From positions 1 to 31,989 of the forward strand of contig JAZGDW010000262.1 of NCBI GenBank assembly GCA_036478295.1: a stretch of 31,989 nucleotides of DNA, written 5' to 3'. The DNA comes from Candidatus Krumholzibacteriia bacterium. Its GTDB lineage: Bacteria; Krumholzibacteriota; Krumholzibacteriia; WVZY01. Below the pieces are notes generated by a model. That model did not search any database, was not told where the DNA came from, and was given only the letters and a program-made list of their open reading frames with translations. The position numbers were made by a program, and so were the translations under genes. Of this stretch, positions 10,695 to 28,735 are shown in pieces; the first letter of the stretch is position 1; every line of letters starts with the position of its first letter.

Positions 10695-12326
10695 TTAGCG
10701 TTTGCGGCTCTTGCCGCGCCCGCCGCGTTTTGAGGAGCGTGGACTCGAGCTCTTGCTCGATGACCGGGAATGCGACCGGGAGCTTTTCACGCTCCGGCCC
10801 TTTGCATTTGAGGAATGCGAACGCCGCTGGGTCTTCACCGACCGCGATTTTCCGTGACTGCCCGAGCGCGGAGCGGCTTTGCCATAGCGCCGCGACGTCG
10901 ACCGCTTCACCGCTTTTCGCCCGCCGGACCTGCTGGCCTTGCTGCGCCCGACACGCGTCTTGGAACTGTGTGAGCGCTTTGACGTGTGGACCCGCTCCTT
11001 GTGGCTCCTGGAGCCTCCTCGGTGGACAATCTTCTTCACGGGCCGCGTCCGGGTCCGGTCGCCCTTCTTAACCGCTTTCTTGCTGTAACTCTTTGCGCGG
11101 GACGAGTGCTTGACCTTCGTGGACTTACCTATTGCTCGGGTCGTTCTCGATGTCGCCTTGTGGCGCACTCGTGGATCGTTCCCGTAGTTCGTTGCCGAGG
11201 CCACGCCACTTTTGTCCCGTACGCTACCCTTCAGCCGCAGGGATCGCGCCGCGATCGTCTCACCGTGGTGCCCCCCGTACCCGTAACCCCCGTTGTAATA
11301 CGGGTAGCCGTAGCCGTAACCGCTGTAGTACGGGTAATCGTAGTAGTTAGCGTAGTGGTGATTGTAGTGGTGTCCCCAGTAGAAGCCGACACTCCAATAA
11401 AAGCCGCTCCCATAATAGTAGTAGGGGTAGTACGAGTAATAGTTGTAATACGGGTAATAGTTGTAATACGGATAGTAGCCGTAGCCCGCGTACGACGGGT
11501 AAGAACCGTAGCCGTAATAGTCCGGGTAGTACGTTACGTAGACGCGGTTGGTCGTGCTTTCGCCCGTGTCGTCGTCACCGTCGTCGTATCCCTCCGGCCT
11601 GGCCAGGTTATCGATAAACTGTCTCTCGAACGCCGGCGCCAGCGGATAGCTTAAGTGATGTTCGTTGTTGAACGCCGTGGTGGCCTCGTACTCCGCGATG
11701 CCCTCGCCATACGGATCCTTGCCGGAGGCGTAGCATTCCTCACAGAGGTAGCGGGGATAGTCGACCGCCTCGTTTACATAGAAATACGTATAGGCGAGTG
11801 AGACCCCTTCGTTGTAACGCACCCCGCGCACCAGTTTCTCGGCCACCCGGTTGGCCGCCAGGAACGGGTCACCGTCTATGCGGAATCGCTTGTGAAACGG
11901 GAGGCTCTCGCCTTCCAGCAGAGAAGCGATCTGGCTCTCGCTGATCGCATCCCGCTCCGGCACCGCCAGCGCGAACACGAACTCGATGCCAGTCATACCG
12001 CTGATACGGAGGGACTCACGCGCGTCCTGGGGGATGTGCAACGTCTCGCCGGCCGAAAGTTTCGGGAAGGAAGTGCTCTGCCGTGGGTACAATAGGCTGA
12101 CGAATCCCTCGGTATCGATATTGAAGACCAGGATATGGGCGTCGGTATCCGTATCGAGGGTGAAACTCACCGTTTCACCTTTCTGGTAGACACTGCCCGA
12201 TGGATCCGCCAGGGTTATACGGACGCCATATTTTGAATAGTCTGTTGAATTATAACGAGTTACTGCCTCAGAATTCTGGGCGAGGATCAGGGCCAGGACC
12301 GGAAAGAGAGCGAGGGCTTTCTTCAT
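10695..12326 (-). CDS. Exported DUF4384-like protein with Tyr-rich region and Arg/Ser/Lys-rich tail
   Basis: AAGGAGG RBS, signal peptide, YQKGETVSF...VFNIDTEGFVSLLYP DUF4384-like domain; low-complexity C-terminal half. Confidence 0.8.
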   Translation of the reverse strand: MKKALALFPVLALILAQNSEAVTRYNSTDYSKYGVRITLADPSGSVYQKGETVSFTLDTDTDAHILVFNIDTEGFVSLLYPRQSTSFPKLSAGETLHIPQDARESLRISGMTGIEFVFALAVPERDAISESQIASLLEGESLPFHKRFRIDGDPFLAANRVAEKLVRGVRYNEGVSLAYTYFYVNEAVDYPRYLCEECYASGKDPYGEGIAEYEATTAFNNEHHLSYPLAPAFERQFIDNLARPEGYDDGDDDTGESTTNRVYVTYYPDYYGYGSYPSYAGYGYYPYYNYYPYYNYYSYYPYYYYGSGFYWSVGFYWGHHYNHHYANYYDYPYYSGYGYGYPYYNGGYGYGGHHGETIAARSLRLKGSVRDKSGVASATNYGNDPRVRHKATSRTTRAIGKSTKVKHSSRAKSYSKKAVKKGDRTRTRPVKKIVHRGGSRSHKERVHTSKRSHSSKTRVGRSKASRSGGRKAVKRSTSRRYGKAAPRSGSHGKSRSVKTQRRSHSSNAKGRSVKSSRSHSRSSSKSSSPRSSKRGGRGKSRKR

Positions 12327-12516: not shown

Positions 12517-13272
12517 ATGGATACGCAATTTGTACTGCCGTTTGCGGATGTGGGGCAGTCGTTCATTTCACTGATGCTCGGGAGCGGCGCGTTCGCCAAG
12601 GTCGTGCTGCTCATCCTTTTCGTCATGTCGGTCACCTCGTGGGCGATTATCTTCGACCGCACCCGCCTGTACCTGAAGCTGAGACGACTTGGAAACTCGC
12701 TGCAGACGGGCCTTGCCTCCAGAGGCCTTGCCTTGCCCATGGCGACGGTCAACCGCGGCCTGCCGTCGATCGAGGGGGCGTTGATCCTAGAGACCAAACG
12801 CTATCTGGAGGGGAATAAACCATCTTCCGCGGAAGGCTCTCCGGGGGGAGGCGGCCGCTCGGTGGACAAACTCAAGGATCTCCTGGACGGCCGCGCCGTC
12901 TCCGAGGTGTCGGAGATGGAGAAGTACCTCATCTTTCTGTCTACCACGGCCAGTGTCGCCCCGTTTCTTGGGCTGCTCGGCACGGTGTGGGGCATCATGA
13001 GCAGTTTTCTCAGCATGGGGGTGCAGGGAACGGCGAGCATCGAGGTAGTCGGCCCGGGCATCGCCGAGGCGCTCGTCACCACTATCGCGGGCCTCGGCAC
13101 GGCGATTACAGCGCTCGTGGGGTATAACCTGTTGGTGAGGCACGTGCGGCGCCAGGAAACCCGCATCGAGCTTTTTATCTCGAGGATTCTCGCGTTGACG
13201 GCCGACAAGTTCCAACAGCCGAGTTCGCACCCGGCCACCCGGGAGGCGTCGTATGAAGAAAAGTCCTTATAG
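12517..13272 (+). CDS. tolQ: TolQ (MotA/TolQ/ExbB proton channel)
   Basis: APFLGLLGTVWGIMSSF and PGIAEALVTT motifs; first gene of the tol-pal cluster. Confidence 0.92.
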   Translation: MDTQFVLPFADVGQSFISLMLGSGAFAKVVLLILFVMSVTSWAIIFDRTRLYLKLRRLGNSLQTGLASRGLALPMATVNRGLPSIEGALILETKRYLEGNKPSSAEGSPGGGGRSVDKLKDLLDGRAVSEVSEMEKYLIFLSTTASVAPFLGLLGTVWGIMSSFLSMGVQGTASIEVVGPGIAEALVTTIAGLGTAITALVGYNLLVRHVRRQETRIELFISRILALTADKFQQPSSHPATREASYEEKSL

Positions 13273-13654
13273 CTCCATCTCGGAGATCAACATCACATCC
13301 CTGGTCGACGTGATGATGGTTCTCCTGATTATCTTCATGTTGACGGCGCCCTTTATCCAGGCGGGGATAAAGGTGCAGCTGCCCAGGGCCAAATCGACGG
13401 TCATCAAGGAAACCGACGGCGTCATGCTGGCGGTGACCCGGGAAGGCGACATCTACCTCAATGACCGCAAGGTCGAGCGGGACCAGATGGAGGAATCTCT
13501 GCGTAACCTGAAGGTCGCCGGCGAGGAGCGGGTGTTCGTGCGGGCGGACAAGGAAGTACCATACGGAGTCGTAATGGAGGTAATCGGTCGGGTCAAGGCG
13601 GTGGGAATCGACGAGGTGGGGTTGATTACCCAAATGGAAAAAATCGAGAAATAG
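13253..13654 (+). CDS. tolR: TolR (ExbD/TolR)
   Basis: EINITSLVDVMMVLLIIFM and RADKEVPYGVVMEV motifs. Confidence 0.92.
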   Translation: MKKSPYSSISEINITSLVDVMMVLLIIFMLTAPFIQAGIKVQLPRAKSTVIKETDGVMLAVTREGDIYLNDRKVERDQMEESLRNLKVAGEERVFVRADKEVPYGVVMEVIGRVKAVGIDEVGLITQMEKIEK

Positions 13655-13678
13655 GATCCGGATACCGGTCCTGATGAG

Positions 13679-14335
13679 ATGAAAAACGCACTTCTTTTTT
13701 CGTTCGCGCTGCACGTTGTGGCGGGTGTTCTGTCACAGGCGGTGGTCAAGTTCTCCCACGTCCGTTTCGTTCCGCGCGAGGTCTACTCGGTTCAGATAGT
13801 GGATCCCGCCCTGTTCGAGAAACCGGCGCCCAAACCCCCTCCGGTCGTCGAGAAGAAAACCGAGCCCGTGGTCAAGCAAGAAAAGCCGGAGGAGCTCGTG
13901 CCGCCCCAGCGCAAGAAACCGAAGCCGCAGAAGAAAGAACCGGAGGTGGTAAAGAAGACCGTTCAAGAGGAAAAGCTGACGGATAACCCACCCCTGGACG
14001 ACACCGAGCCGCCGGCCACGGGTGACATGCAGCTCAGTGTAGAGGATTTCCCCTTCGCGTACTACCTCACGTCTGTGAAGCGCAAGATCGCCGCGTTATG
14101 GACGGTGCCGGGAACCGCAACGAGCGAGGAGAAGTTCTGCCGCGTGTATTTTCAGGTGGGTCGCGGCGGCGGCATCACCGCGCTTTCCATCGAGACTTCG
14201 TCGGGCAACTTCCTTTTCGACCAGGCGGCGCTGCGGGCGGTCACTCAGGCCAACCCGTTGCCCCCGCTTCCCAACGGGTTTCCCGACAACTACCTGGGGG
14301 TGCATTTTAGTTTTGCCTATGAGCAAGAGTATTAG
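13679..14335 (+). CDS. tolA: TolA (TonB C-terminal-type energy transducer)
   Basis: N-terminal TM with SxxLH, Pro/Lys/Glu linker, SSGNFLFDQAALRAV...PLPPLP; lies between tolR and tolB. Confidence 0.85.
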   Translation: MKNALLFSFALHVVAGVLSQAVVKFSHVRFVPREVYSVQIVDPALFEKPAPKPPPVVEKKTEPVVKQEKPEELVPPQRKKPKPQKKEPEVVKKTVQEEKLTDNPPLDDTEPPATGDMQLSVEDFPFAYYLTSVKRKIAALWTVPGTATSEEKFCRVYFQVGRGGGITALSIETSSGNFLFDQAALRAVTQANPLPPLPNGFPDNYLGVHFSFAYEQEY

Positions 14336-15572
14336 AATACGCGCGGGTCTGGTCCTCGTTCTGCTGCTGGCCATGCCGGTCACAGCGGTGGGTCAGTCGG
14401 AGGTGGAGCTGGGCATCCGTAGCTCGTTTGCCAACCGCATCCCCCTGGCCATCGCGCCTTTTGCGGCGCTGGACGGCACCTCACGCGAGGATGTCCTGGC
14501 GCTGGAGCGTGTGGTGACCTCCGACCTGGAATTCTCGGGCGTCTTCAAGATCCATCGCGGCAGGGTCCCCGCCGCGCACAACGGCGACACCGAGGGGCTG
14601 GTCGAAGTGCGGGGCGCGATGTTTCTCTACCGCGACAAAGCCCATTTCGAGGGCCGCGTGGTGGACGTGGAAACCGGACAACAGATCGGCGCCAAGCGCT
14701 ATCTCTTCAAGCGGGAGCAGGTCCGCCAGATCGCCCATCATTTCGCAGACGAAGTCGTGCGCATGCTGACCGGCGAAAAGGGGATCGCCACCACCCACGT
14801 GCTGTACCGGCGCAAGAGCGGGGACACGTGGGAAGTGATCATGTCGGATTACGACGGCTACAACAGCAAAGTGCTGCTCCGGCAGAGTGTCCCCATTCTC
14901 TATCCCCGCTGGCTCGATAAGGACGCGGCGCTGGCCTATACGAGCTTCCGCTACGGGAAGCCGGATCTTTTCGTGCGATATCTCAAAGAGGCCGCGTCGC
15001 GACGGCTGGCGACCTTCGACGGGATCAATTTCTCGGTGGACTGGTCGGAGAAACGCGGGGAAATGCTGGTAACGCTCAGCAAGGACGGGAACGCCGAGAT
15101 CTACATCATGAAAAAGGGGGGCAAGGTCAGAAAGCGCCTCACCCACAGCCGGGCCATCGATATCAGCCCCGGCTGGTCACCGAGCGGCCGCGAGTTGGTC
15201 TTTTCGTCGGACCGGTCGGGCAACCCCCATATTTTCGTCATGGAGGCGGACGGCAGCAACGTGCGACGTCTGACCTTCGCCGGCAAGTACAACGAGTCCC
15301 CCACCTGGTCGCCGAAGGGGGACTATATCGCGTTTGTATCGAGGATTGACGGATTCTTCCAGCTGTGTACAATTCGACCGGATGGCACCGGTTTCCAGGT
15401 GTTGACCAGTGAACCGCTCGACCACGAGGACCCTCGCTGGGCGCCCAACGGACGCCACATCATTTACAGCGAGGATCGGGACGGCGAATCGGTTATTTCA
15501 ATTATTGACATCGGCACAGGCGGTAGGAGAGTATTAGCGCAGGGTAGTAACCCGGACTGGTCTGCCCGGTAA
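14319..15572 (+). CDS. tolB: TolB periplasmic beta-propeller protein
   Basis: Signal peptide, TolB N-domain (IAHHFADEVV...TGEKGIA), DYDGYN and repeated WSP/PD40 motifs. Confidence 0.93.
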   Translation: MSKSIRIRAGLVLVLLLAMPVTAVGQSEVELGIRSSFANRIPLAIAPFAALDGTSREDVLALERVVTSDLEFSGVFKIHRGRVPAAHNGDTEGLVEVRGAMFLYRDKAHFEGRVVDVETGQQIGAKRYLFKREQVRQIAHHFADEVVRMLTGEKGIATTHVLYRRKSGDTWEVIMSDYDGYNSKVLLRQSVPILYPRWLDKDAALAYTSFRYGKPDLFVRYLKEAASRRLATFDGINFSVDWSEKRGEMLVTLSKDGNAEIYIMKKGGKVRKRLTHSRAIDISPGWSPSGRELVFSSDRSGNPHIFVMEADGSNVRRLTFAGKYNESPTWSPKGDYIAFVSRIDGFFQLCTIRPDGTGFQVLTSEPLDHEDPRWAPNGRHIIYSEDRDGESVISIIDIGTGGRRVLAQGSNPDWSAR

Positions 15573-15622
15573 GGCGGCAGACGCTGCAGGCAAGAAACAC
15601 ACGATAGCGGGAGGTTTGTTGT

Positions 15623-16144
15623 ATGAGAGTGACGAATATTCTGGTTTGTGTCCTGGTGGTGTTGGTGGCTTTTGGCTTCACGGCGTGTTCGAAAAAACAG
15701 ACCGCGAGCCAGTCCCCGTCGACAATTGATACGGAGCCGGTAACCACGCAGCCGCCACCGGCGGTTGAAGTTGACACGCCGGCCACGGACACAGAGCCCA
15801 CACAGGTACCGATTCCGGTTTTGTCGGACGTCTTTTTCGATTATGACAAGTCCAATCTGACCAGTGATGGCAAGCGGATACTCGAGGCGAACGCGCGTCA
15901 GCTCAAGGATGCACGTTCGGTCACGATAACCGTCGAAGGTCACTGCGACGAGCGTGGCACCAACTCATACAACCTGGCGCTGGGAGAGAGACGTGCCAGG
16001 GCGGCGAAGGACTATCTCCGGTCGCTCGGGGTTGGCGCGAGCCGCGTCAAGACGGTCAGTATGGGTGAGGAGCGGCCGTTCGATTCCGGTCGTACCGAGG
16101 CCGCATGGGCCAAGAACCGGAGAGCGCATTTTATTATTAACTGA
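15623..16144 (+). CDS. pal: Peptidoglycan-associated lipoprotein Pal
   Basis: Lipobox FTAC; FFDYDKS, EGHCDERGTNSYNLALGERRA and AWAKNRRA. Confidence 0.96.
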   Translation: MRVTNILVCVLVVLVAFGFTACSKKQTASQSPSTIDTEPVTTQPPPAVEVDTPATDTEPTQVPIPVLSDVFFDYDKSNLTSDGKRILEANARQLKDARSVTITVEGHCDERGTNSYNLALGERRARAAKDYLRSLGVGASRVKTVSMGEERPFDSGRTEAAWAKNRRAHFIIN

Positions 16145-16158
16145 CCGGCTGCACGATT

Positions 16159-16959
16159 TTGACACGATCGCTCGTTAAAAAGCTGTTCGGTTTGGGCGTG
16201 GCCGTGGGCGTGGCCGTGGGCCTGACATCGGGGTGCTACAGCACCAAGATGATGGAGTTTACCTATCAGGAACTCGATACGGTAAAGACCACGCAAAAGG
16301 AGCTCCTGGAGACGATCCACATGTTGTCCCAGCAGCTCGACGAGGAGAGGCAGGCCCGCGTACACGCGCAGGCGGAATCCGCCCAGACCATGCGGGAGCT
16401 CCGCGAGGTGTTGGAGATTCTGTCCTATCGGGTGGACGATACCTCGCAGCTTCTCTCGAACCGCGGCGCGTCCGGATCCGTCGGGCGCACGGTGGCCGGG
16501 CGGGACACGGTCAGGGGCCGCCCGCCGGGTACCACCGATGCAAAGACGGACACGTCGCTCGCCGCGACCGTCGGTGAAGCCAAGGAATCAAAACGACTGT
16601 TCGAGAGTTCGTACATGGATCTGACCCTGGGCAACTACGACCTGGCCGTTCAGGGCTTCAAGAACTACATCGTGCGTTACCCTGGATCAACCGGCCGGGA
16701 TAATGCCTACTACTATCTCGGGGAGTCGTATTACTCGCTGTCGCGGTACCTGGAGGCGGTGGCGGAATACCAGAGTGTCATCCGCGAGTTCCCGCGCTCG
16801 CGCTTCACCGCGGCTTCGTATTTGAAATCGGGATTTTGCTACCAGAAATTGGAAGAAAAGCAGCTCGCCACGAAAGCCTTCCGCGAACTCATCGCCAGTT
16901 ATCCGCGCAGCGAGGAAGCCGAACAGGCACGGGTCGCGCTGAAGGAAATGGGAGGGTAG
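16159..16959 (+). CDS. cpoB: CpoB/YbgF (coiled-coil plus TPR)
   Basis: Lipobox-like TSGC, coiled coil, TPRs (GNYDLAVQGF, AYYYLGESYY, YPRSEEA); follows pal. Confidence 0.88.
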   Translation: MTRSLVKKLFGLGVAVGVAVGLTSGCYSTKMMEFTYQELDTVKTTQKELLETIHMLSQQLDEERQARVHAQAESAQTMRELREVLEILSYRVDDTSQLLSNRGASGSVGRTVAGRDTVRGRPPGTTDAKTDTSLAATVGEAKESKRLFESSYMDLTLGNYDLAVQGFKNYIVRYPGSTGRDNAYYYLGESYYSLSRYLEAVAEYQSVIREFPRSRFTAASYLKSGFCYQKLEEKQLATKAFRELIASYPRSEEAEQARVALKEMGG

Positions 16960-21693: not shown

Positions 21694-21812
21694 GGCGTGC
21701 GACCTCTGCTTCTCGTCGCGAACGGTCGTAGTTCGTTGCTGGTGAACGCACAGTATACAACCCTGTAATGATTTCTTGCAATCGTCATTACGAGTCGGTA
21801 ACGTACGGCGTC

Positions 21813-23165
21813 ATGACGGCCCCCAGGAGTCGATACTTCCGGCGCAACTTCACATTGGGTGTCATCACCGGGGCGCTCATCAATCTCGGAATGGCGTTCC
21901 TGGACCCTTTTATCGTGCTGCCGCTGTTCATTTCGAAGCTGGGCGGGTCGGCGACGTTGATCGGCCTGGTCAGCGCCCTCCACGGCGTCGGCTGGTTCTT
22001 CCCCCAGGTATTCGCGTCACGGCTGGCGGAAACGCGGCGATTTCTCATGCCGATGTACCGGGGCATATCGCTGTTTCGGATTCTGTCGCTCGCCGGCGCC
22101 GCCTTGATTGTGCTCACCGTCGACCCCGAGCACACGGGTCTCTTTCTCACGGGCTTCCTGGGGCTGCTCTTCCTGGCCCACCTGGCTGGAGGTTTTTCCG
22201 CGATTCCGTTCCTCGAGGTGACGAGCAAGACCATCCCGGTGACCATTCGCGGACGCTTCTTCGGGACCCGCCGTCTCATCGGGGGTTCGGCCGGGATTGG
22301 CGTGGGCGTGCTCGTCGGGTTGGTACTCAATCGCCGCGAAGAGAACCTGTGGATGAGCGGACCCTTTTTTGACTTGCTGGGGCCGGTGGCGGCCAGACTC
22401 GGCCTGCTCGGCCGCGAGTTTCCCTCCGACTTTGGCATCCTCTTCCTTCTCGGGGCGGGCTGCATGACATTGGGCATGCTCGCCTTCGCCTTCGCCGGAG
22501 AACCACCTGCGGTCGCCGTGCAGGAATCAGCACGCCTCCTCGACCACCTGCGTGCCGGTTTCAAACTGATCAGACGTGATGCCAACTACCGCCTGTTCTA
22601 TCTCGTGAGAATCTGCTGGCAGTTCACGGCGATGACGTTTCCGTTTTACGCCGTTTACGCGTTCACCGACCTCGAATTCTCGGAGAACACCGTCGGGCTC
22701 TTCTTGTCCCTCTGGCTGGGGGCCGGTGTCTTGTCGAATTATATATGGGGAAAGATACTCGACCGCAGCGGCAACAAGAGTGTTCTGCTGGCGACTGCGA
22801 TCCTCAGTGCGCTGCCGCCCGCCGTCGTTTTGGTGGTAGACGGGATGATACGCCACTCGCTGGAGCCAGCGAGCGTGAAACTCCTGCTGGTGATCAGCAC
22901 GACCTTTCTGGTAAACGGTTTCATTCGCAGCGGCCGCGTAATCAGCAATATCACCTACCTGCTCGAGTTCGCACCCGAGAACAAACGGCCCCTGTACGTG
23001 GGTTTCATGAACAGCTTCAGCTTTCCCTTCATGCTGAGCCCCCTCCTGGGCGGGGTCATCCTCCAGGTGTTCGATATCCGCATCCTCTTCTCCATCTCGC
23101 TGGCCTTTGCCCTCCTTAACATGGTGCTTAGCACCGGTCTCAAAGAGCCGCGGGTCACGAAGTAG
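21813..23165 (+). CDS. MFS transporter; last codons replaced by the integrated element
   Basis: About 12 TM segments, WGKILDRSGNK motif-A variant, RPLYVG. Ends LKEPRVTK in the integrated state. Start is 21813 or 21768. Confidence 0.9.
   Translation: MTAPRSRYFRRNFTLGVITGALINLGMAFLDPFIVLPLFISKLGGSATLIGLVSALHGVGWFFPQVFASRLAETRRFLMPMYRGISLFRILSLAGAALIVLTVDPEHTGLFLTGFLGLLFLAHLAGGFSAIPFLEVTSKTIPVTIRGRFFGTRRLIGGSAGIGVGVLVGLVLNRREENLWMSGPFFDLLGPVAARLGLLGREFPSDFGILFLLGAGCMTLGMLAFAFAGEPPAVAVQESARLLDHLRAGFKLIRRDANYRLFYLVRICWQFTAMTFPFYAVYAFTDLEFSENTVGLFLSLWLGAGVLSNYIWGKILDRSGNKSVLLATAILSALPPAVVLVVDGMIRHSLEPASVKLLLVISTTFLVNGFIRSGRVISNITYLLEFAPENKRPLYVGFMNSFSFPFMLSPLLGGVILQVFDIRILFSISLAFALLNMVLSTGLKEPRVTK
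23137..23149 (+). repeat. Left att core repeat
   Basis: GTCTCAAAGAGCC (then G-CG), inside the MFS codons GLKEP. Confidence 0.8.
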
Positions 23166-23254
23166 AATAGCTCGTACAACTATCTATGGGACAACAAGGT
23201 AACATGATCCAATCCGATCCTGATTTGCGCCGTGGCTAGTAATCGGGTGCTGGC

Positions 23255-23776
23255 GTGCCCGGAAGTGGCGTCGGTCCACGAAAGATCGCTGAACTTGAAT
23301 CTCAATTGGCTACAGAGGATGAGCGGCCCTCGCTTACTATGTTCGTTGATCCAAAGAGACACGAAAAGATACCCTCTAAACCGACAACTTTTCGCGTAGT
23401 CGTAAAGAACGATGGGGGCGTGAAGATTGATGATATATCGGTGCGAGTAAAGAGCGTTGAGCCGCCTAGCGATAAAATGAATAAGTATCGGGATGTGCCG
23501 CTACATCAAAAACATAATAATACTCCACCTTATGACGAGTACTTTTCCCTTATAGCTGGGGAGGAAAAGGAAATAGATGTTATAGCTGGAAACGACGGGG
23601 CCGCAACTTTTTGCGTCTGCCACATCGTTGATGGGTTGTATCCGTGGGTAACCTGCGATCTAGGCCATCGGAATTTTGAGTTTTTCCTAGAAGCGAAAAG
23701 CGAGGACGCTAGCTGCGAAATAACAGTAGTGGTTCGAGATGATGATAATAATAGGCTCATCTTTGAACGAGAATAG
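23255..23776 (+). CDS. Hypothetical protein, probably 5'-truncated
   Basis: AT-rich open frame KIAELESQL...RLIFERE without a convincing RBS or start; internal ATG at 23339. Confidence 0.55.
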   Translation: MPGSGVGPRKIAELESQLATEDERPSLTMFVDPKRHEKIPSKPTTFRVVVKNDGGVKIDDISVRVKSVEPPSDKMNKYRDVPLHQKHNNTPPYDEYFSLIAGEEKEIDVIAGNDGAATFCVCHIVDGLYPWVTCDLGHRNFEFFLEAKSEDASCEITVVVRDDDNNRLIFERE

Positions 23777-23823
23777 ATGTTTTGCTCAGCGCGAAGCACC
23801 GAGGCGCCAAAAAAGGGGGGCCT

Positions 23824-24015
23824 ATGGTTCCAACAATAGGAATTATGATTGGCTGGTACATTATAGCACGCTGTCTGTCTCTTTTGACACGAGTGGGCGA
23901 GCGCTCTGAGAACCTGCTGGTCAAAGTGTTTGCCGGCATCGCGATTCTTGTCGCGATGTACTCGATATTCTCTTTGCTTCTTGGGAGCTTGACGGGTGAC
24001 TTGGGAACCGGTTGA
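23824..24015 (+). CDS. Small two-TM membrane protein
   Basis: AAAGGGGGG RBS then ATG 23824; MVPTIGIMIGWYIIARCLSLL...VKVFAGIAILVAMYSIFSLLLG; 63 aa. Confidence 0.7.
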   Translation: MVPTIGIMIGWYIIARCLSLLTRVGERSENLLVKVFAGIAILVAMYSIFSLLLGSLTGDLGTG

Positions 24016-24030
24016 AGCAGGAGAGTACCG

Positions 24031-24600
24031 CTATTGATAGAGCGCCTTCACGCGGCCCCAGGTGGTTGGCTCCACTGGTACGGTCGGACAAATAAGTGCG
24101 GTCAGGCCGACACCCGGGATCTCCACGTCGGGGTCACCAAGAACAAACGCCCCTAGCAAACCAGTGCGAGGGTTCGGACCAACAGTGATTGGAGCATTGC
24201 TAGTGCCCGTGCAGGCGCTGCATTGCCATAGTAGGACAACCTCGACGAGGATGAGCGCTGTGTTGGCGTCCACCGCGCCGCCCAAAAACCCAAGCTGGAG
24301 CCCTGTCGGCGTTGTACCGTTAGTAAGGGTGGGCATAAGATAGTTCTCCCCAATATACTGGAGCTCCGGGGGAAAGGTAATCTGAAACTCTATCGCGTTT
24401 ATCATGGCATTGAAGTTTAGCGCGGCAACATATAACCTCTGCACCACCGTTCCCGGGGGAGCTATCGGACAAGTCGCCGCCTCAACCTGTATCTTTTCGT
24501 CGAAATAAACGGCTACAAATGGGGTCTGTGCACTGAGGATGGTGAAGCCGGAGGTGATGAGCAAGAGTGAAACCAGAACCACAACAACTGGTTTACACAT
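24031..24600 (-). CDS. Secreted Cys-containing beta-rich protein with C-terminal TWG motif
   Basis: AAAGGAG RBS before ATG 24600; signal peptide; ends CPTVPVEPTTWGRVKALYQ. Confidence 0.85.
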   Translation of the reverse strand: MCKPVVVVLVSLLLITSGFTILSAQTPFVAVYFDEKIQVEAATCPIAPPGTVVQRLYVAALNFNAMINAIEFQITFPPELQYIGENYLMPTLTNGTTPTGLQLGFLGGAVDANTALILVEVVLLWQCSACTGTSNAPITVGPNPRTGLLGAFVLGDPDVEIPGVGLTALICPTVPVEPTTWGRVKALYQ

Positions 24601-24624
24601 GACTACTCCTTTCAATGAGCGCTT

Positions 24625-25221
24625 CTATTCAGCGTACAGCGACTTAATTCGGCCCCAGGTCGTGTGGGGATCGTCGGGGATGCCGGTGGGATCGGCTCAC
24701 GGACACGTGGCGTTGTGATTGATGATGCCCTCGCCGCAGTCCACAAACACCACCCGGCCCTCACAGTCCCCTAATTCGACTTGGCCGGATACCGCAGCGG
24801 GATGCGGTAGAACCTTGTAAGAGCAACAAGGGGATGTTCCCCCGCCAAAAGTAAGGACGCTAAGGACATGGATCGGTGTAGTTAAGCACCGGCCGTACTC
24901 AATGGTAACGCCGGTTTGCGAGAAGCCGATCGTGACGGGGAACGGATTGTTGTCCGCGAGCCACATGCCCGGATAGCAGGGCGGTAATGGGGCCGAGAAT
25001 CGGCTCTGCCAGGCACCCGGCTGCCCGCGCGCTCTCGTGTGAACTATATACCAGAAGTTAGGTGCTGCAGCATCAGAAAGAGCACAGTCAGCTCCGAATG
25101 TATCGCTAAAGATCCCGATGCGGCCGCCCGCCCCCTGAGCTTGCGCCGTCCGGGGTGCCGTCGATAGCAATGCGAGGAATAGAAACAGGAGAAGCGAACG
25201 GATGAAACGGGAACTCGACAT
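24625..25221 (-). CDS. Secreted Cys-rich protein with C-terminal TWG motif, interrupted by an in-frame TGA at 24697-24699 (nonsense allele or recoded stop)
   Basis: Signal peptide ending AQA. The frame continues past the TGA: ...NHNATCP*ADPTGIPDDPHTTWGRIKSLYAE* (TAG at 24625-24627). Confidence 0.8.
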
Positions 25222-25379
25222 TGTGGTACCTCGGGGACTCGGACAGATTATACCACAAAACGTGCCGCATACCGCGGGAAGAAACGTGAAGGGGTCTCAG
25301 GCTTGAAAAAACAGGGTACACAGCCGCGAAATTGTCCCAGGGGACTCCGGGCAGGCTGGAGCGCGGCCGCCAGCGTGGG

Positions 25380-25889
25380 TTATTTCTCGTACTTATCCTT
25401 CACCGCACCCCAGGTCGTTTCCTCGACCGCGACGGGTTCCGCTGGACCAGGGGTGGGCATGCCGTTCAGGCATATCGTTCCGTCTTCGTGGACGATCGTA
25501 ATAGAAATGAAAGGATCAGAGATTATCACGAATGACCGGATCGGCGTGCCCGAGCACAAACCTAAGGTGAGTTTAGCCGTACCGATTCCCGCGGCGCTCA
25601 CAAGGGAATGAAACAAGGTATTCCCCTGTACACTGAGCAGCCAGAGGCCAACGCCCTCGAAATCAAAGACAGAGAATTCGAAGGCGCCGGGTACGGTACC
25701 GATGAGCGTCCAGGTGGTGAAATTGGCAGAGTGATATACCTCCCCGGTGTTGGTTAGGGCAAACAGGTCCGAGGGAACCCCCGGAGCGACTCCGGCAGCA
25801 ATTACGTGAACCGCCTGCGCCGGTGGGGCGGTTAGAAGGACGAGAGAAACGATGAGGATGGCGGCAGAGAACCTGTAGAATTTTTGCAT
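25380..25889 (-). CDS. Secreted protein with C-terminal TWG motif
   Basis: ATG 25889 (MQKFYRFSAAILIVSLVLLTAPPAQA signal peptide); ends AEPVAVEETTWGAVKDKYEK. Confidence 0.8.
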   Translation of the reverse strand: MQKFYRFSAAILIVSLVLLTAPPAQAVHVIAAGVAPGVPSDLFALTNTGEVYHSANFTTWTLIGTVPGAFEFSVFDFEGVGLWLLSVQGNTLFHSLVSAAGIGTAKLTLGLCSGTPIRSFVIISDPFISITIVHEDGTICLNGMPTPGPAEPVAVEETTWGAVKDKYEK

Positions 25890-25934
25890 CGGAGAACCCC
25901 TTGCTAAAGGAATGGTGAGATACGAATTAAACCT

Positions 25935-25947
25935 TGCTATTATAGCA
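25935..25947 (-). promoter_or_regulatory. Extended -10 promoter of the cargo genes within a palindrome
   Basis: Minus strand TGcTATAAT; the plus strand reads TGCTAT-T-ATAGCA. Confidence 0.55.
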
Positions 25948-26021
25948 GAATAGCCGATGGAGAGGGGGTGTTGAAACCCCGCGATGGGCTTTGCCAAACC
26001 CGGATTTTTGGGGGTAGCATG

Positions 26022-26050
26022 TTGACAGCATAGCAGCACAGTGCTATTCT
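26022..26050 (+). promoter_or_regulatory. Sigma-70 promoter of the RHH/integrase genes with overlapping operator-like palindrome
   Basis: TTGACA-N17-TATTCT with extended TG; ATAGCA-N6-TGCTAT at 26030-26047. Confidence 0.7.
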
Positions 26051-26069
26051 ATGGTAGAAAGGAGATCCG

Positions 26070-26234
26070 GTGGTGAAACGGGTCACGATAAGGGTAGACG
26101 ATAAGCTGTGGGCTCGGCTGCAGAAACGGGTCCTCGAGCTCAAACTACGCGGTGCAAAGGTTGGGGGCAAGCAGGCAAGCCTCAACGCGCTGTGCGAGGA
26201 TCTGCTGCGGCGTGGGCTGGCCAAAGGAAAATGA
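26070..26234 (+). CDS. Small ribbon-helix-helix (Arc/CopG-like) DNA-binding protein
   Basis: AAAGGAG RBS then GTG; MVKRVTIRVDDKLWARLQKRVLELKLRGAKVGGKQASLNALCEDLLRRGLAKGK (54 aa); ATGA overlap with the next gene. Shorter than any ORF in the track. Confidence 0.75.
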   Translation: MVKRVTIRVDDKLWARLQKRVLELKLRGAKVGGKQASLNALCEDLLRRGLAKGK

Positions 26235-26824
26235 GTATGGGAAAAGCACAACGACTCATAGTTGCTGGTCTTTTGTTGGGGTTCCTTATTGTTGGCAACC
26301 CGGGCGGCAGCTTCAATGACATGCCATTCTGGAAGCCCGCAGTGCCGCGTGACGTCGTTGGCGACTGGCGTATCATCGCGGTAGGGGTTGACGACGGATT
26401 TGCATCTCGTTCAGATATCGTTTGGGATTTGCTTTTGGATTATATTTTGCCAACGCGTTGGGTGCCAATAGATAGCGTTTTGGATTGGCAACCGACGACC
26501 GTAGAAGCACGTCTGAGAATTAGGGCCCCCGGGGCGTTTAGCTATACGGAGTTCAACGCAGATAACTTGGCAGTGTGGTCGAAGAGCGGGACCTTCCAGG
26601 CTTCTGAGGCTTCTGAGCCGCCTAACCAGTCATTCACGATGACTGTTGACAGGGTGCAACGCAAATCTGTAATAGGTGAAGAAATAACTGGTTACTGGGA
26701 GTCAATTGCCCCCCTCGATATCGTGCGGCAGGAAGGACGTTACGTCGTCCAGGACGCCCCGCGCCGATTGTCACTTTGTTTTGAGCAAGACGGTGTATAT
26801 CTGCTCTACGAATTAGAAGAGTGA
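26231..26824 (+). CDS. Membrane-anchored/exported hypothetical protein (lipocalin-like GxW motif)
   Basis: N-terminal hydrophobic helix, DVVGDWRII, beta-rich sequence; coupled to the RHH gene. Confidence 0.7.
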   Translation: MSMGKAQRLIVAGLLLGFLIVGNPGGSFNDMPFWKPAVPRDVVGDWRIIAVGVDDGFASRSDIVWDLLLDYILPTRWVPIDSVLDWQPTTVEARLRIRAPGAFSYTEFNADNLAVWSKSGTFQASEASEPPNQSFTMTVDRVQRKSVIGEEITGYWESIAPLDIVRQEGRYVVQDAPRRLSLCFEQDGVYLLYELEE

Positions 26825-26881
26825 TAGAAGCGATTCGGTTCTGGTTGTCGAATCAGGATTGAGCAAATAAGGAGATAACAA

Positions 26882-28006
26882 ATGACCAAGAACAAAAGCC
26901 ATGCAGAACTAATGAAAACGCTCAAGCCCGGAGAACGGTATTTCTTAGGGGCTGGGATCTTCGCCAGGCGGACAAAGACCGGGGTTACCTATGGGATCTC
27001 TTACAAGTTTGACGGAACGGTCATACGCGAGATGGTCGGCACCAGGACGGATGCAAAACTGGAGCTCGCAAATAGACGTGTCGATATAAGCGAGGGCCGC
27101 AACCCGCGCCCCAAGAGGGCGCCCCTGTTTAGGGACTTCGCCAACGAATACTTGGAGTGGTCAAAGGATAACAAGCGGTCCTGGAGGCGCGACAAGACAA
27201 TCCTTCAACACCTGCGGGCTAGGTTCGACAACAAGCGCCTCGACCAGATCCAAACCAAGGACGTGCAAGACTTCATAGCAAACCGCGCCAAGGAATTCAC
27301 ACCCACAGGGAAAAGGGTTTCGCCGCGAACGGTCAACCTCGAGCGGTCATGTCTGCGGCGCATGTTTTCACTAGCACTTTTCTGGAAGCGCCTAGACCCA
27401 AGCCGGTACACCAACCCCGTAAACCGGGGAGCGAAACCAAGGACGGAAACATCAAAGCCCCGGCGCGTCTTGACCAGGGACGAGGAGACCAGGTTGCTTG
27501 CAGCTGCAAAGCCGTACCTGCAGCAGATAATCACCTTTGGTCTGCATACGGGCATGCGGCCCGGGCAGATTATGGCGCTCAAGTGGTCGGCTATTGACTG
27601 GAAAACGAATACGATTACCGCCGGCCCGATGACCGACGAGGACTTGGAATCCGGGCACCACAAAAACGAGGCAAACCCGATCGTCCCCATAACTGCGAGA
27701 CTGGCGCGCCTCTTAAACGAGCTTCCGAGATGTTCCGTATTTGTGTTCACCCGAGATGGGAAGCCGATTAAGTGCTATAGGCGGCCTTTTTCTAGGGCGG
27801 TCAAGGCGGCCGGTATCAAGTACGCGAGCCCGCACTCAACCCGACATACCTTTTGCACCAGGCAGCTGATAGATTGCGGGACGGATCTAAAAACCGTCAT
27901 GGAAATGGTGGGCCATAAGCACATCAGCACGACGCAGAAATACCTACACACGAACGAGGAGTACAAGCGCGAAGCCCAGCGGCGCTATGATGAGCTTTTC
28001 GGGTAG
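26882..28006 (+). CDS. int: Tyrosine recombinase / phage-type integrase
   Basis: N-terminal arm-binding-like region, SAM-like domain (SPRTVNLERSCLRRMF), catalytic TGMR, HSTRH, VGH and TTQKY; AAGGAG RBS. Confidence 0.95.
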   Translation: MTKNKSHAELMKTLKPGERYFLGAGIFARRTKTGVTYGISYKFDGTVIREMVGTRTDAKLELANRRVDISEGRNPRPKRAPLFRDFANEYLEWSKDNKRSWRRDKTILQHLRARFDNKRLDQIQTKDVQDFIANRAKEFTPTGKRVSPRTVNLERSCLRRMFSLALFWKRLDPSRYTNPVNRGAKPRTETSKPRRVLTRDEETRLLAAAKPYLQQIITFGLHTGMRPGQIMALKWSAIDWKTNTITAGPMTDEDLESGHHKNEANPIVPITARLARLLNELPRCSVFVFTRDGKPIKCYRRPFSRAVKAAGIKYASPHSTRHTFCTRQLIDCGTDLKTVMEMVGHKHISTTQKYLHTNEEYKREAQRRYDELFG

Positions 28007-28054
28007 GGTGGCGGGGATCGCGGGCCGGCCTTCGCGGATTGTCACTGACCCGAA

Positions 28055-28336
28055 TTAGGTCGTTCGATCCTTAATCCAGTAGATAATGTCGGCTAAGGTG
28101 TGGTCTACAATTAGTTGGCCCTTAGCATAGTTCGATAGGTTCTCATCAGTGAAAACAAAGTCCTTTTGGCCGTCGCCTGCGAACACACGAAGTCGATATT
28201 TCGGCTCGTAACTCTTCAATCTATCAACCCAAATCAGCTTGTCTTTGTCGATCGCGGTTTCATAACGGATACGATCCAACACCCTCTTTGCACCCTCCTT
28301 GCGTTTCTCTAGATTCTTATTCAAATTTATAGGCAT
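28055..28336 (-). CDS. Hypothetical protein (93 aa)
   Basis: GGGAGGA RBS before ATG 28336; AT-rich; convergent with the integrase gene. Confidence 0.7.
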   Translation of the reverse strand: MPINLNKNLEKRKEGAKRVLDRIRYETAIDKDKLIWVDRLKSYEPKYRLRVFAGDGQKDFVFTDENLSNYAKGQLIVDHTLADIIYWIKDRTT

Positions 28337-28565
28337 AGCCAATCCTCCCTTTCTTCAAACTGTACCACTACCCCCAAAAACGGCAAGAAAGACTGAGACC
28401 GTACCACCACCCAATCCGTGGCACTTTTATGGCACACTACCGAACGCCAAAACGGTCATTTCTATTGAAAAAGTAGACTGACAAGAGAGCAGGGAAAGCA
28501 CCTAACGGGCTATAAAGAGAACAACTTTACTACCCCGCACCGACTTGGGCTCTATCGGCCTGTTA

Positions 28566-28578
28566 GTCTCAAAGAGCC
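28566..28578 (+). repeat. Right att core repeat, followed by the displaced MFS 3' end
   Basis: GTCTCAAAGAGCC, continuing in the MFS frame as LKEPRDHPPDEASD* (TAA at 28610-28612). Confidence 0.8.
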
Positions 28579-28735
28579 CCGAGACCACCCGCCTGACGAA
28601 GCTTCGGACTAATGAGCCATTATGTCATGCTGGTATGTCATGTCTGAAATCGTTTGCCTGGGAGCGGCACGGCGGCATAAGCCTAACCTATTTAATGATA
28701 GTCGATTCTAAAACTGGTCACCCTGCGGCGTGACT

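Follow-up and report, generated by a model that had tools for sequence, protein, structure and literature searches.

Can a mobile element settle in the last codons of a protein-coding gene, exchange the end of that gene and still leave it whole? This question is raised by contig JAZGDW010000262.1 of a Candidatus Krumholzibacteriia bacterium (assembly GCA_036478295.1). The stretch analysed comprises 31,989 bp (positions 1 to 31,989, hereafter the window) and carries a gene for a major facilitator superfamily (MFS) transporter, followed by DNA that encodes a tyrosine integrase. The best explanation, to which we give a probability of about 0.85, is that this DNA is a small non-autonomous integrative element, or mobile genomic island, from a bacterium of Krumholzibacteria type, and that the element's own tyrosine integrase inserted it within a 13-bp block. 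The island has mapped boundaries, an empty counterpart in relatives, a displaced gene tail, an integrase with intact catalytic residues and a lower GC content than its flanks. The corresponding features are:

21768..23165, plus strand: target of the insertion, the MFS transporter gene of the host; ATG at 21813 probably the start; Pfam MFS_1 match of 78 bits; last codons derived from the island
23137..23149, plus strand: left attachment site (attL) identity block, GTCTCAAAGAGCC, within the codons for G-L-K-E-P
23150..23165, plus strand: island-supplied replacement end, which completes Pro, restores an invariant Arg and adds VTK and a stop
26882..28006, plus strand: tyrosine integrase of 374 aa, pointing at the right attachment site (attR); PF00589 match of 94.6 bits; phrog_1 match with E 2e-61
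28566..28578, plus strand: attR identity block; a host-side contig of sequencing run X1 starts exactly at 28566
28579..28612, plus strand: displaced original MFS tail (RDHPPDEASD and a stop)

Boundaries of the island and the empty site in relatives

The island comprises 5,429 bp (23137-28565) and is bounded by two copies of GTCTCAAAGAGCC. A first-pass annotation of this DNA had placed the 13-mer in the last codons of the MFS gene and again 5429 bp further on, with 15 of 16 bases matching when extended, and a search of the 3.5-Mb assembly bore this out: exact copies are present only at 23137-23149 and 28566-28578. When one mismatch was allowed, five sites were found, three of them outside the island ends. 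The GC content of the island is 0.534, compared with 0.594 and 0.592 in the flanks. The same annotation read the junctions as LKEPRVTK and a stop on the left and LKEPRDHPPDEASD and a stop on the right. Both readings stand; the claim that they share one frame does not, since 5429 is not a multiple of 3: each tail keeps its register relative to the core, and their genomic frames differ.

The most informative evidence comes from relatives that carry the same locus in uninterrupted form. The MFS gene was matched in 33 of the 61 genomes searched, including its own, and longer stretches were obtained from 20 of the 32 other genomes with a match. In 18 of these 20 loci, an Hsp20 gene lies 234-400 bp after the end of the MFS gene with no integrase in between. 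The other two are uninformative, one having no Hsp20 match and ending soon afterwards, the other not including the MFS end. Six of 15 metagenome loci, which partly repeat genomes already counted and are therefore not independent, show an MFS-Hsp20 gap of 226-256 bp. None of these 35 MFS loci (20 from relatives and 15 from metagenomes) has an integrase match or a second element at the MFS site.

Subtraction of the island from the window leaves 244 bp between the MFS end and Hsp20, and the corresponding distance in the same-genus genome G001 is 249 bp. The DNA of G001 matches 44 of 60 bases to the left of the first repeat and 49 of 70 to the right of the second, compared with 13 of 60 and 19 of 70 when the sides are crossed, and in the DNA alignment its homology switches from the left flank to the right flank at the core. 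As G001 matches the right flank and not the island side, the sequence after 28578 is the displaced original MFS tail. An uninterrupted site with its breakpoints at the repeat is thus found in the same genus and beyond, in other species. The empty MFS-Hsp20 locus that the first-pass annotation had proposed looking for exists in G001, where the MFS protein, which carries a Krumholzibacteriia label, ends in LREPRGATPDATAGN and a stop, and the protein-coding attachment site (attB) that it had postulated is supported by this locus, such sites being ordinary. It had also reasoned that island-free relatives ending in VTK would contradict the insertion; none ends in VTK, and one of 22 has a tail beginning with VT.

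Consequences for the transporter gene

In all 22 orthologues with their end in view, an Arg residue follows the motif L/IxEP, and between 1 and 16 unconserved residues come after it. The repeated block ends inside the Pro codon, and the island bases complete this Pro and provide the Arg, so that neither state loses any of the conserved part. The MFS frame is open through EPR to a stop with and without the island, and the tail length remains inside the natural range, so that, at the level of the reading frame, the target is preserved by the replacement sequence. As the tail after EPR is unconserved, the swap is unlikely to matter. From the sequences, it is probably neutral, and the transporter probably stays functional. 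The exchange of the C-terminus by insertion at the 3' end, as first proposed, is thus supported by the junctions and by G001. Regulated gene integrity (PMC10111431), in which insertion inactivates a target and excision restores it, was also considered and rejected, the MFS frame being whole both ways.

The integrase and its relatives

Tyrosine integrases rely on the catalytic residue set R-K-H-R-H/W-Y. The island integrase possesses R226, K261, H318, R321, H345 and Y354, a set that is invariant in all nine aligned integrases. In the collections searched, its best relatives are 40-43% identical and none exceeds 43%; genome contigs gave a single fragment match. Viral contigs yielded no relative with a single-protein query, and an alignment query returned only matches of 24-35% identity.

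The insertion sites of the closest homologues, which the first-pass annotation had recommended for comparison, often involve tRNA genes: one lies within about 1.1 kb of the integrase 3' end in 6 of 11 related loci in other genomes of the phylum. Together with a relative in the same genome that lies beside phage genes, these tRNA neighbours indicate that MFS targeting is not a shared trait of the wider integrase group.

The relative in the same genome marks one end of a prophage (locus L257, G000:C233). Its integrase is 37-40% identical to that of the island, it is accompanied by head-maturation protease and tape-measure genes, and the prophage is a possible helper. On the same contig, a 3' fragment of tRNA-Lys, starting from the anticodon loop, was seen by eye before a DNA polymerase III alpha-like gene; Rfam made no call there. 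In another genome (L081 8689-12479, G008:C53), low-GC DNA carries an integrase related at 32-33%, with a TWG-tailed gene of the same family as in the island (see below) about 2 kb upstream on the opposite strand. From its sequence, this locus may have a similar layout at another site. A further locus (L073 152-8980, G011) has four tandem genes for proteins of 400-900 aa with near-identical kinase-like N-termini (MIGKTISHYKILEKLGEGGMGVV).

Evidence from sequencing runs

Four of the 17 listed runs were compared as contigs; the best holds 0.23 of the sequence words of the region and none holds half. Run X1 contains a strain about 97-98% identical, in which the host contigs stop at 23134 on the left and resume at 28566, where the core starts. 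We infer that these ends mark a branch point. Over its 418 bases, the X1 contig covering 28177-28595 shows 23 differences. Each of the four runs covers parts of the island, and several variants of the right end are present.

Proposed mechanism and points that weigh against it

On this basis, a circular form of the element and the MFS 3' end would be recombined by the element's tyrosine integrase within the 13-bp block, probably through an overlap of 6-7 bp somewhere inside it. Strand exchange would duplicate the block and push the old MFS tail away, and the replacement sequence would restore the invariant EPR and a stop, which should leave a functional transporter. A ribbon-helix-helix (RHH) protein encoded by the island may repress a promoter that reads towards the integrase. 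The element would also be excised, and transfer between cells would require a helper phage, a helper element or transformation. Its TWG-tailed cargo would represent exported proteins acquired from the pool of the host lineage.

Several observations weigh against this interpretation. No attB or attP joint was found in the contigs of the four runs, contigs being prone to drop rare forms. The X1 contig across attR reaches 30 bases from the core start, 17 of them past the core, and the bridge rule of the tool is 31. A 22-base attR pattern had no match in the metagenome collection, which may lack near-identical records, and no empty allele from the same species was recovered. With regard to arm-type integrase sites, no repeat of at least 9 bases occurs across the two inner ends, the only ones being of 7-8 bases and without a control. 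The RHH assignment is below the cut-off, and no excisionase was recognised in the island, whereas in G011 an HTH_17 gene precedes a related integrase.

Alternative explanations

Three other accounts of the locus were weighed. A 13-mer repeated by coincidence, with the 5.4 kb acquired through another route, is very improbable. Repeated 13-mers are indeed common across the 32 kb (47 repeated 13-mer positions in the window), but it is at the repeat that homology to the empty site changes sides, and the comparison with G001 refutes coincidence in practice. In a position-matched control, 4 of 5000 random 66-nt genome pieces shared at least 13 bases with the 820-nt stretch from the integrase to Hsp20, and the host contig of X1 starts on the first base of the repeat. 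The dyad that had been described in the reconstructed empty site is to be read with its own control, a perfect 6-bp dyad with a spacer of 6-12 bp lying near 1.6% of random positions. It is possible, although we consider it rather doubtful, that the MFS gene is a secondary or recently adopted target of a tRNA-type integrase, on which the element landed a single time; this would be compatible with the mobile island proposed here. The tRNA genes near related integrases point in this direction, as does the lack of a second element at the MFS site in the 35 loci. However, those related integrases are 28-41% identical to that of the island, which is too distant for a shared site. When the core is placed in register with the anticodon loop, 9 of its 13 bases also agree with tRNA-Leu(CAA) and tRNA-Ser(CGA), but such a match is estimated to be near chance for 40 tRNAs, and a tRNA-like origin of the core is a lead only. 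Moreover, the replacement restores Arg and the stop, and in X1 a diverged version of the right end seems to lie next to the same host DNA, a hint that the MFS site has been used repeatedly or for a long time.

The element might also be a decayed remnant of a larger prophage or integrative and conjugative element (ICE), now locked in place. This would likewise be compatible with the preferred explanation, and we hold it to be possible without being likely. No replication, transfer, capsid or excisionase gene is recognised, one cargo gene has an in-frame stop, and the integrase of the same genome that is 37-40% identical stands beside head-protease and tape-measure genes. Against decay, the 32 minor open reading frames (ORFs) searched with Pfam and the nine main ORFs searched with PHROGs contain no recognised fragment of a phage or conjugation gene, the integrase and both att blocks are intact, and all four runs contain variants of the cargo and of the right end. 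Of the words "non-autonomous or decayed" in the first-pass annotation, the former is therefore retained, and the latter is less apt, the integrase looking intact and related sequence being present in other strains. A small non-autonomous mobile island remains the explanation that we prefer.

TWG-tailed cargo proteins

Three genes on the minus strand of the island encode proteins of secreted type:

24031..24615, minus strand: secreted-type protein ending in PVEPTTWGRVKALYQ; signal peptide seen by eye; paralogues on several host contigs
24625..25221, minus strand: secreted-type member of a large protein family of Krumholzibacteria; the in-frame TGA at 24697-24699 precedes an intact TWG tail
25380..25889, minus strand: secreted-type protein ending in PVAVEETTWGAVKDKYEK; no paralogue in its own genome at E 1e-3

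All three end in the tail [TS]WGx[IVL]K, which stands before a stop 33 times in their own genome. The family of the 24625-25221 gene has matches in every one of 36 genomes from the order, as many as 26 in a single genome; for one cargo protein, the nearest Atlas clusters belong to Krumholzibacteriota. Given the presence of this family in all 36 genomes and the paralogues on host contigs, the cargo probably derives from the host lineage's own gene pool. Comparison of the island DNA with the 36 genomes gave short matches only, mostly at the TWG tails. A C-terminal PVEETTWGxVKxLY, found on many unrelated secreted-type proteins, is a candidate sorting signal with no match in Pfam or NCBIfam, and a literature search found no paper on the TWG tail.

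The TGA codon at 24697-24699 takes the place of the second Cys of a CxC motif, a position that Cys occupies in 18 other CxC tails. Both selA and a tRNA-Sec are encoded in the genome, while the RNA downstream of the TGA folds no better than shuffled sequences (z 0.60). Among 150 of 293 matches listed, three members of the family contain an internal TGA, which in each of them falls in the linker ahead of the tail; no homologue among the matches listed has a TGA at this Cys, and two other internal TGAs lie off Cys. A TGA before the tail occurs in frame, as judged from lengths, in three cases among 150 of 237 matches listed. Of 78 terminal TWG motifs, four are preceded by a stop no more than 25 codons away, in each case TGA, the loci having been partly chosen for TGA. 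The simplest reading of the cargo TGA is a recent nonsense change; a selenocysteine codon finds no support in conservation and is improbable. At loci L134/L144, L143 and L227, three further TWG tails are preceded by a TGA at a distance of 7-13 codons.

Low-GC DNA elsewhere in the genome (L258, G000:C228:35300-36103) shares an 88-bp leader (87.5% identity) and a 68-bp tail (86.8%) with the cargo, around an unrelated passenger. The end of the protein on this contig includes a short piece that may resemble a single-stranded DNA-binding protein. Among the contigs of the sequencing runs, one joins 24072 to 25143 and three diverge at 24072, a signal that the tool's own warning marks as weak. One could speculate that a population of small islands with only an integrase, this element among them, acts as a shuffling site for TWG-tailed exported proteins of the lineage. 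Passengers would be swapped between a conserved leader (promoter, start and signal peptide) and the C-terminal tail, and a TGA, as selenocysteine or leaky stop, would toggle between tagged and untagged forms. We regard this scheme as unlikely.

Other genes of the island and the window

The remaining features of the island are:

23255..23776, plus strand: ORF of 173 aa, GC 0.46, no family; probably variable cargo; the bin 23436-23802 has zero depth in all four runs
23782..24015, plus strand: small hydrophobic ORF of up to 77 aa, no family
26022..26050, plus strand: sigma-70-like promoter TTGACA-17-TATTCT, overlapped by a 6-bp inverted repeat (26030-26047)
26070..26234, plus strand: 54-aa RHH-like protein, candidate autorepressor; weak NF041551 match, E 0.014, below cut-off
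26231..26824, plus strand: protein of 197 aa, no family, hydrophobic at the N-terminus; overlaps the stop codon of the RHH-like gene
28055..28342, minus strand: alpha/beta protein of 93-95 aa from a small unnamed family; convergent with the integrase

In Pfam, NCBIfam, PHROGs and PADLOC, the integrase alone was recognised in the island, all other matches being weak. PHROGs returned, for the nine main ORFs, the integrase and one weak match to an unknown family (E 0.01). The first-pass annotation had seen no tRNA, replication, conjugation or capsid gene, and ARAGORN, Rfam, Pfam, NCBIfam and PHROGs agree in recognising none; for the window, ARAGORN gave zero tRNA genes and Rfam zero matches. Defence genes were rejected, the two weak partial PADLOC matches not being accepted. 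The RHH-like protein was found in one of 208 genomes of the phylum, its own, and the inverted repeat at 26030-26047 may be its operator, to judge from its position over the promoter. The 93-aa protein family has 10 clusters that are 69-94% identical. This ORF had no match in the 207 other phylum genomes or in viral contigs, its Atlas matches were all below 0.9, and its structural model (pLDDT 77) gave a best Z of 6.0 and a best viral E of 0.01, which led to no fold assignment.

Outside the island, window positions 28620-28645 carry a motif conserved in most relatives, TGTCATG and then a half resembling TGACA/TGGCA, which lies some 200 bp ahead of Hsp20. This motif, which stays on the host side of attR, is a candidate heat-shock operator or promoter element. 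Further upstream, a DUF4384 protein (10695-12326, minus strand) has short tandem repeats in its DNA at about 11290-11510, a Tyr/Gly-rich low-complexity stretch as judged by eye, and 12517-16959 holds an ordinary tol-pal cluster (TolQ, TolR, TonB/TolA, TolB, Pal and a TPR protein, according to Pfam).

Significance and comparison with known systems

Islands in protein-coding genes are common: coding sequences harbour 43.4% of the 1.76 million islands mapped by TIGER/Islander, and 58% of the islands count neither as prophages nor as ICEs (PMC12424338). The available parts of the literature indicate that island targets are usually restored (PMC12884075, PMC5812530) and that replacement of the target's end is the usual strategy (PMC10111431), of which the present element is a minimal form. 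It is ordinary in kind and changes no general principle. A literature search found no paper on an island that targets the 3' end of an MFS gene; the TIGER table, outside that search, may list some. What the element adds is a precisely mapped pair of integrase and attB for an uncultured phylum, the integrase being at best 43% identical to any found. Should the lineage ever be brought into culture, this enzyme could be put to use as a tool for site-specific integration. The locus also illustrates a cheap way of targeting a protein gene, in which the cut falls just within the final conserved motif and the element brings along four codons. In addition, TWG-tailed exported proteins on mobile DNA are a possible route for the expansion of those families.

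Several known classes were considered and rejected. No relaxase, coupling protein or VirB4 was matched among the island ORFs in Pfam and NCBIfam, which argues against an integrative and mobilizable element (IME) or an ICE, an origin of transfer without relaxase being outside this search. A cis-mobilizable element (CIME), which according to the sections of PMC7563491 available keeps its att sites and has lost its recombination genes, does not fit, as the integrase is whole. For a phage-inducible chromosomal island (PICI) or another phage satellite, no primase or replicase, AlpA-type regulator or packaging-redirecting gene was recognised with PHROGs in the nine main ORFs and with Pfam in the 32 minor ORFs.

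Among known systems, the islands mapped by TIGER/Islander share with the present element an integrase, a short identity block at both ends, an empty site in relatives and a target kept functional by replacement (PMC12424338 and, in its accessible portion, PMC10111431). Here, in contrast, the target is an MFS gene in an uncultured lineage, the replacement consists of a few codons that alter the tail, and the integrase has no relative above 43% identity. PICIs and helper-embedded PICIs (HE-PICIs) are likewise small and helper-dependent, with a tyrosine integrase and some insertions in protein genes. They differ in that no primase, AlpA-type or capsid-redirecting gene is recognised here, and in that HE-PICIs, as far as the available text of PMC10111431 states, lack a replacement sequence. 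The mobile genomic islands of Streptococcus salivarius, such as MGI_SsaL22_rplL, also have their own tyrosine integrase, occupy the 3' end of a protein gene and lack a relaxase, coupling protein, VirB4 or prophage gene, according to the same sections of PMC7563491. The phylum, target and cargo are different, and the present element is not in tandem with an ICE or IME. Finally, the dusA-associated integrases belong to islands in which new, non-identical sequence takes over one end of a protein gene and the gene stays functional, as described in the part of PMC4482086 available. Those islands replace the 5' end and are reported from more than 200 genomes, whereas the island described here replaces the 3' end of its target, in one instance.

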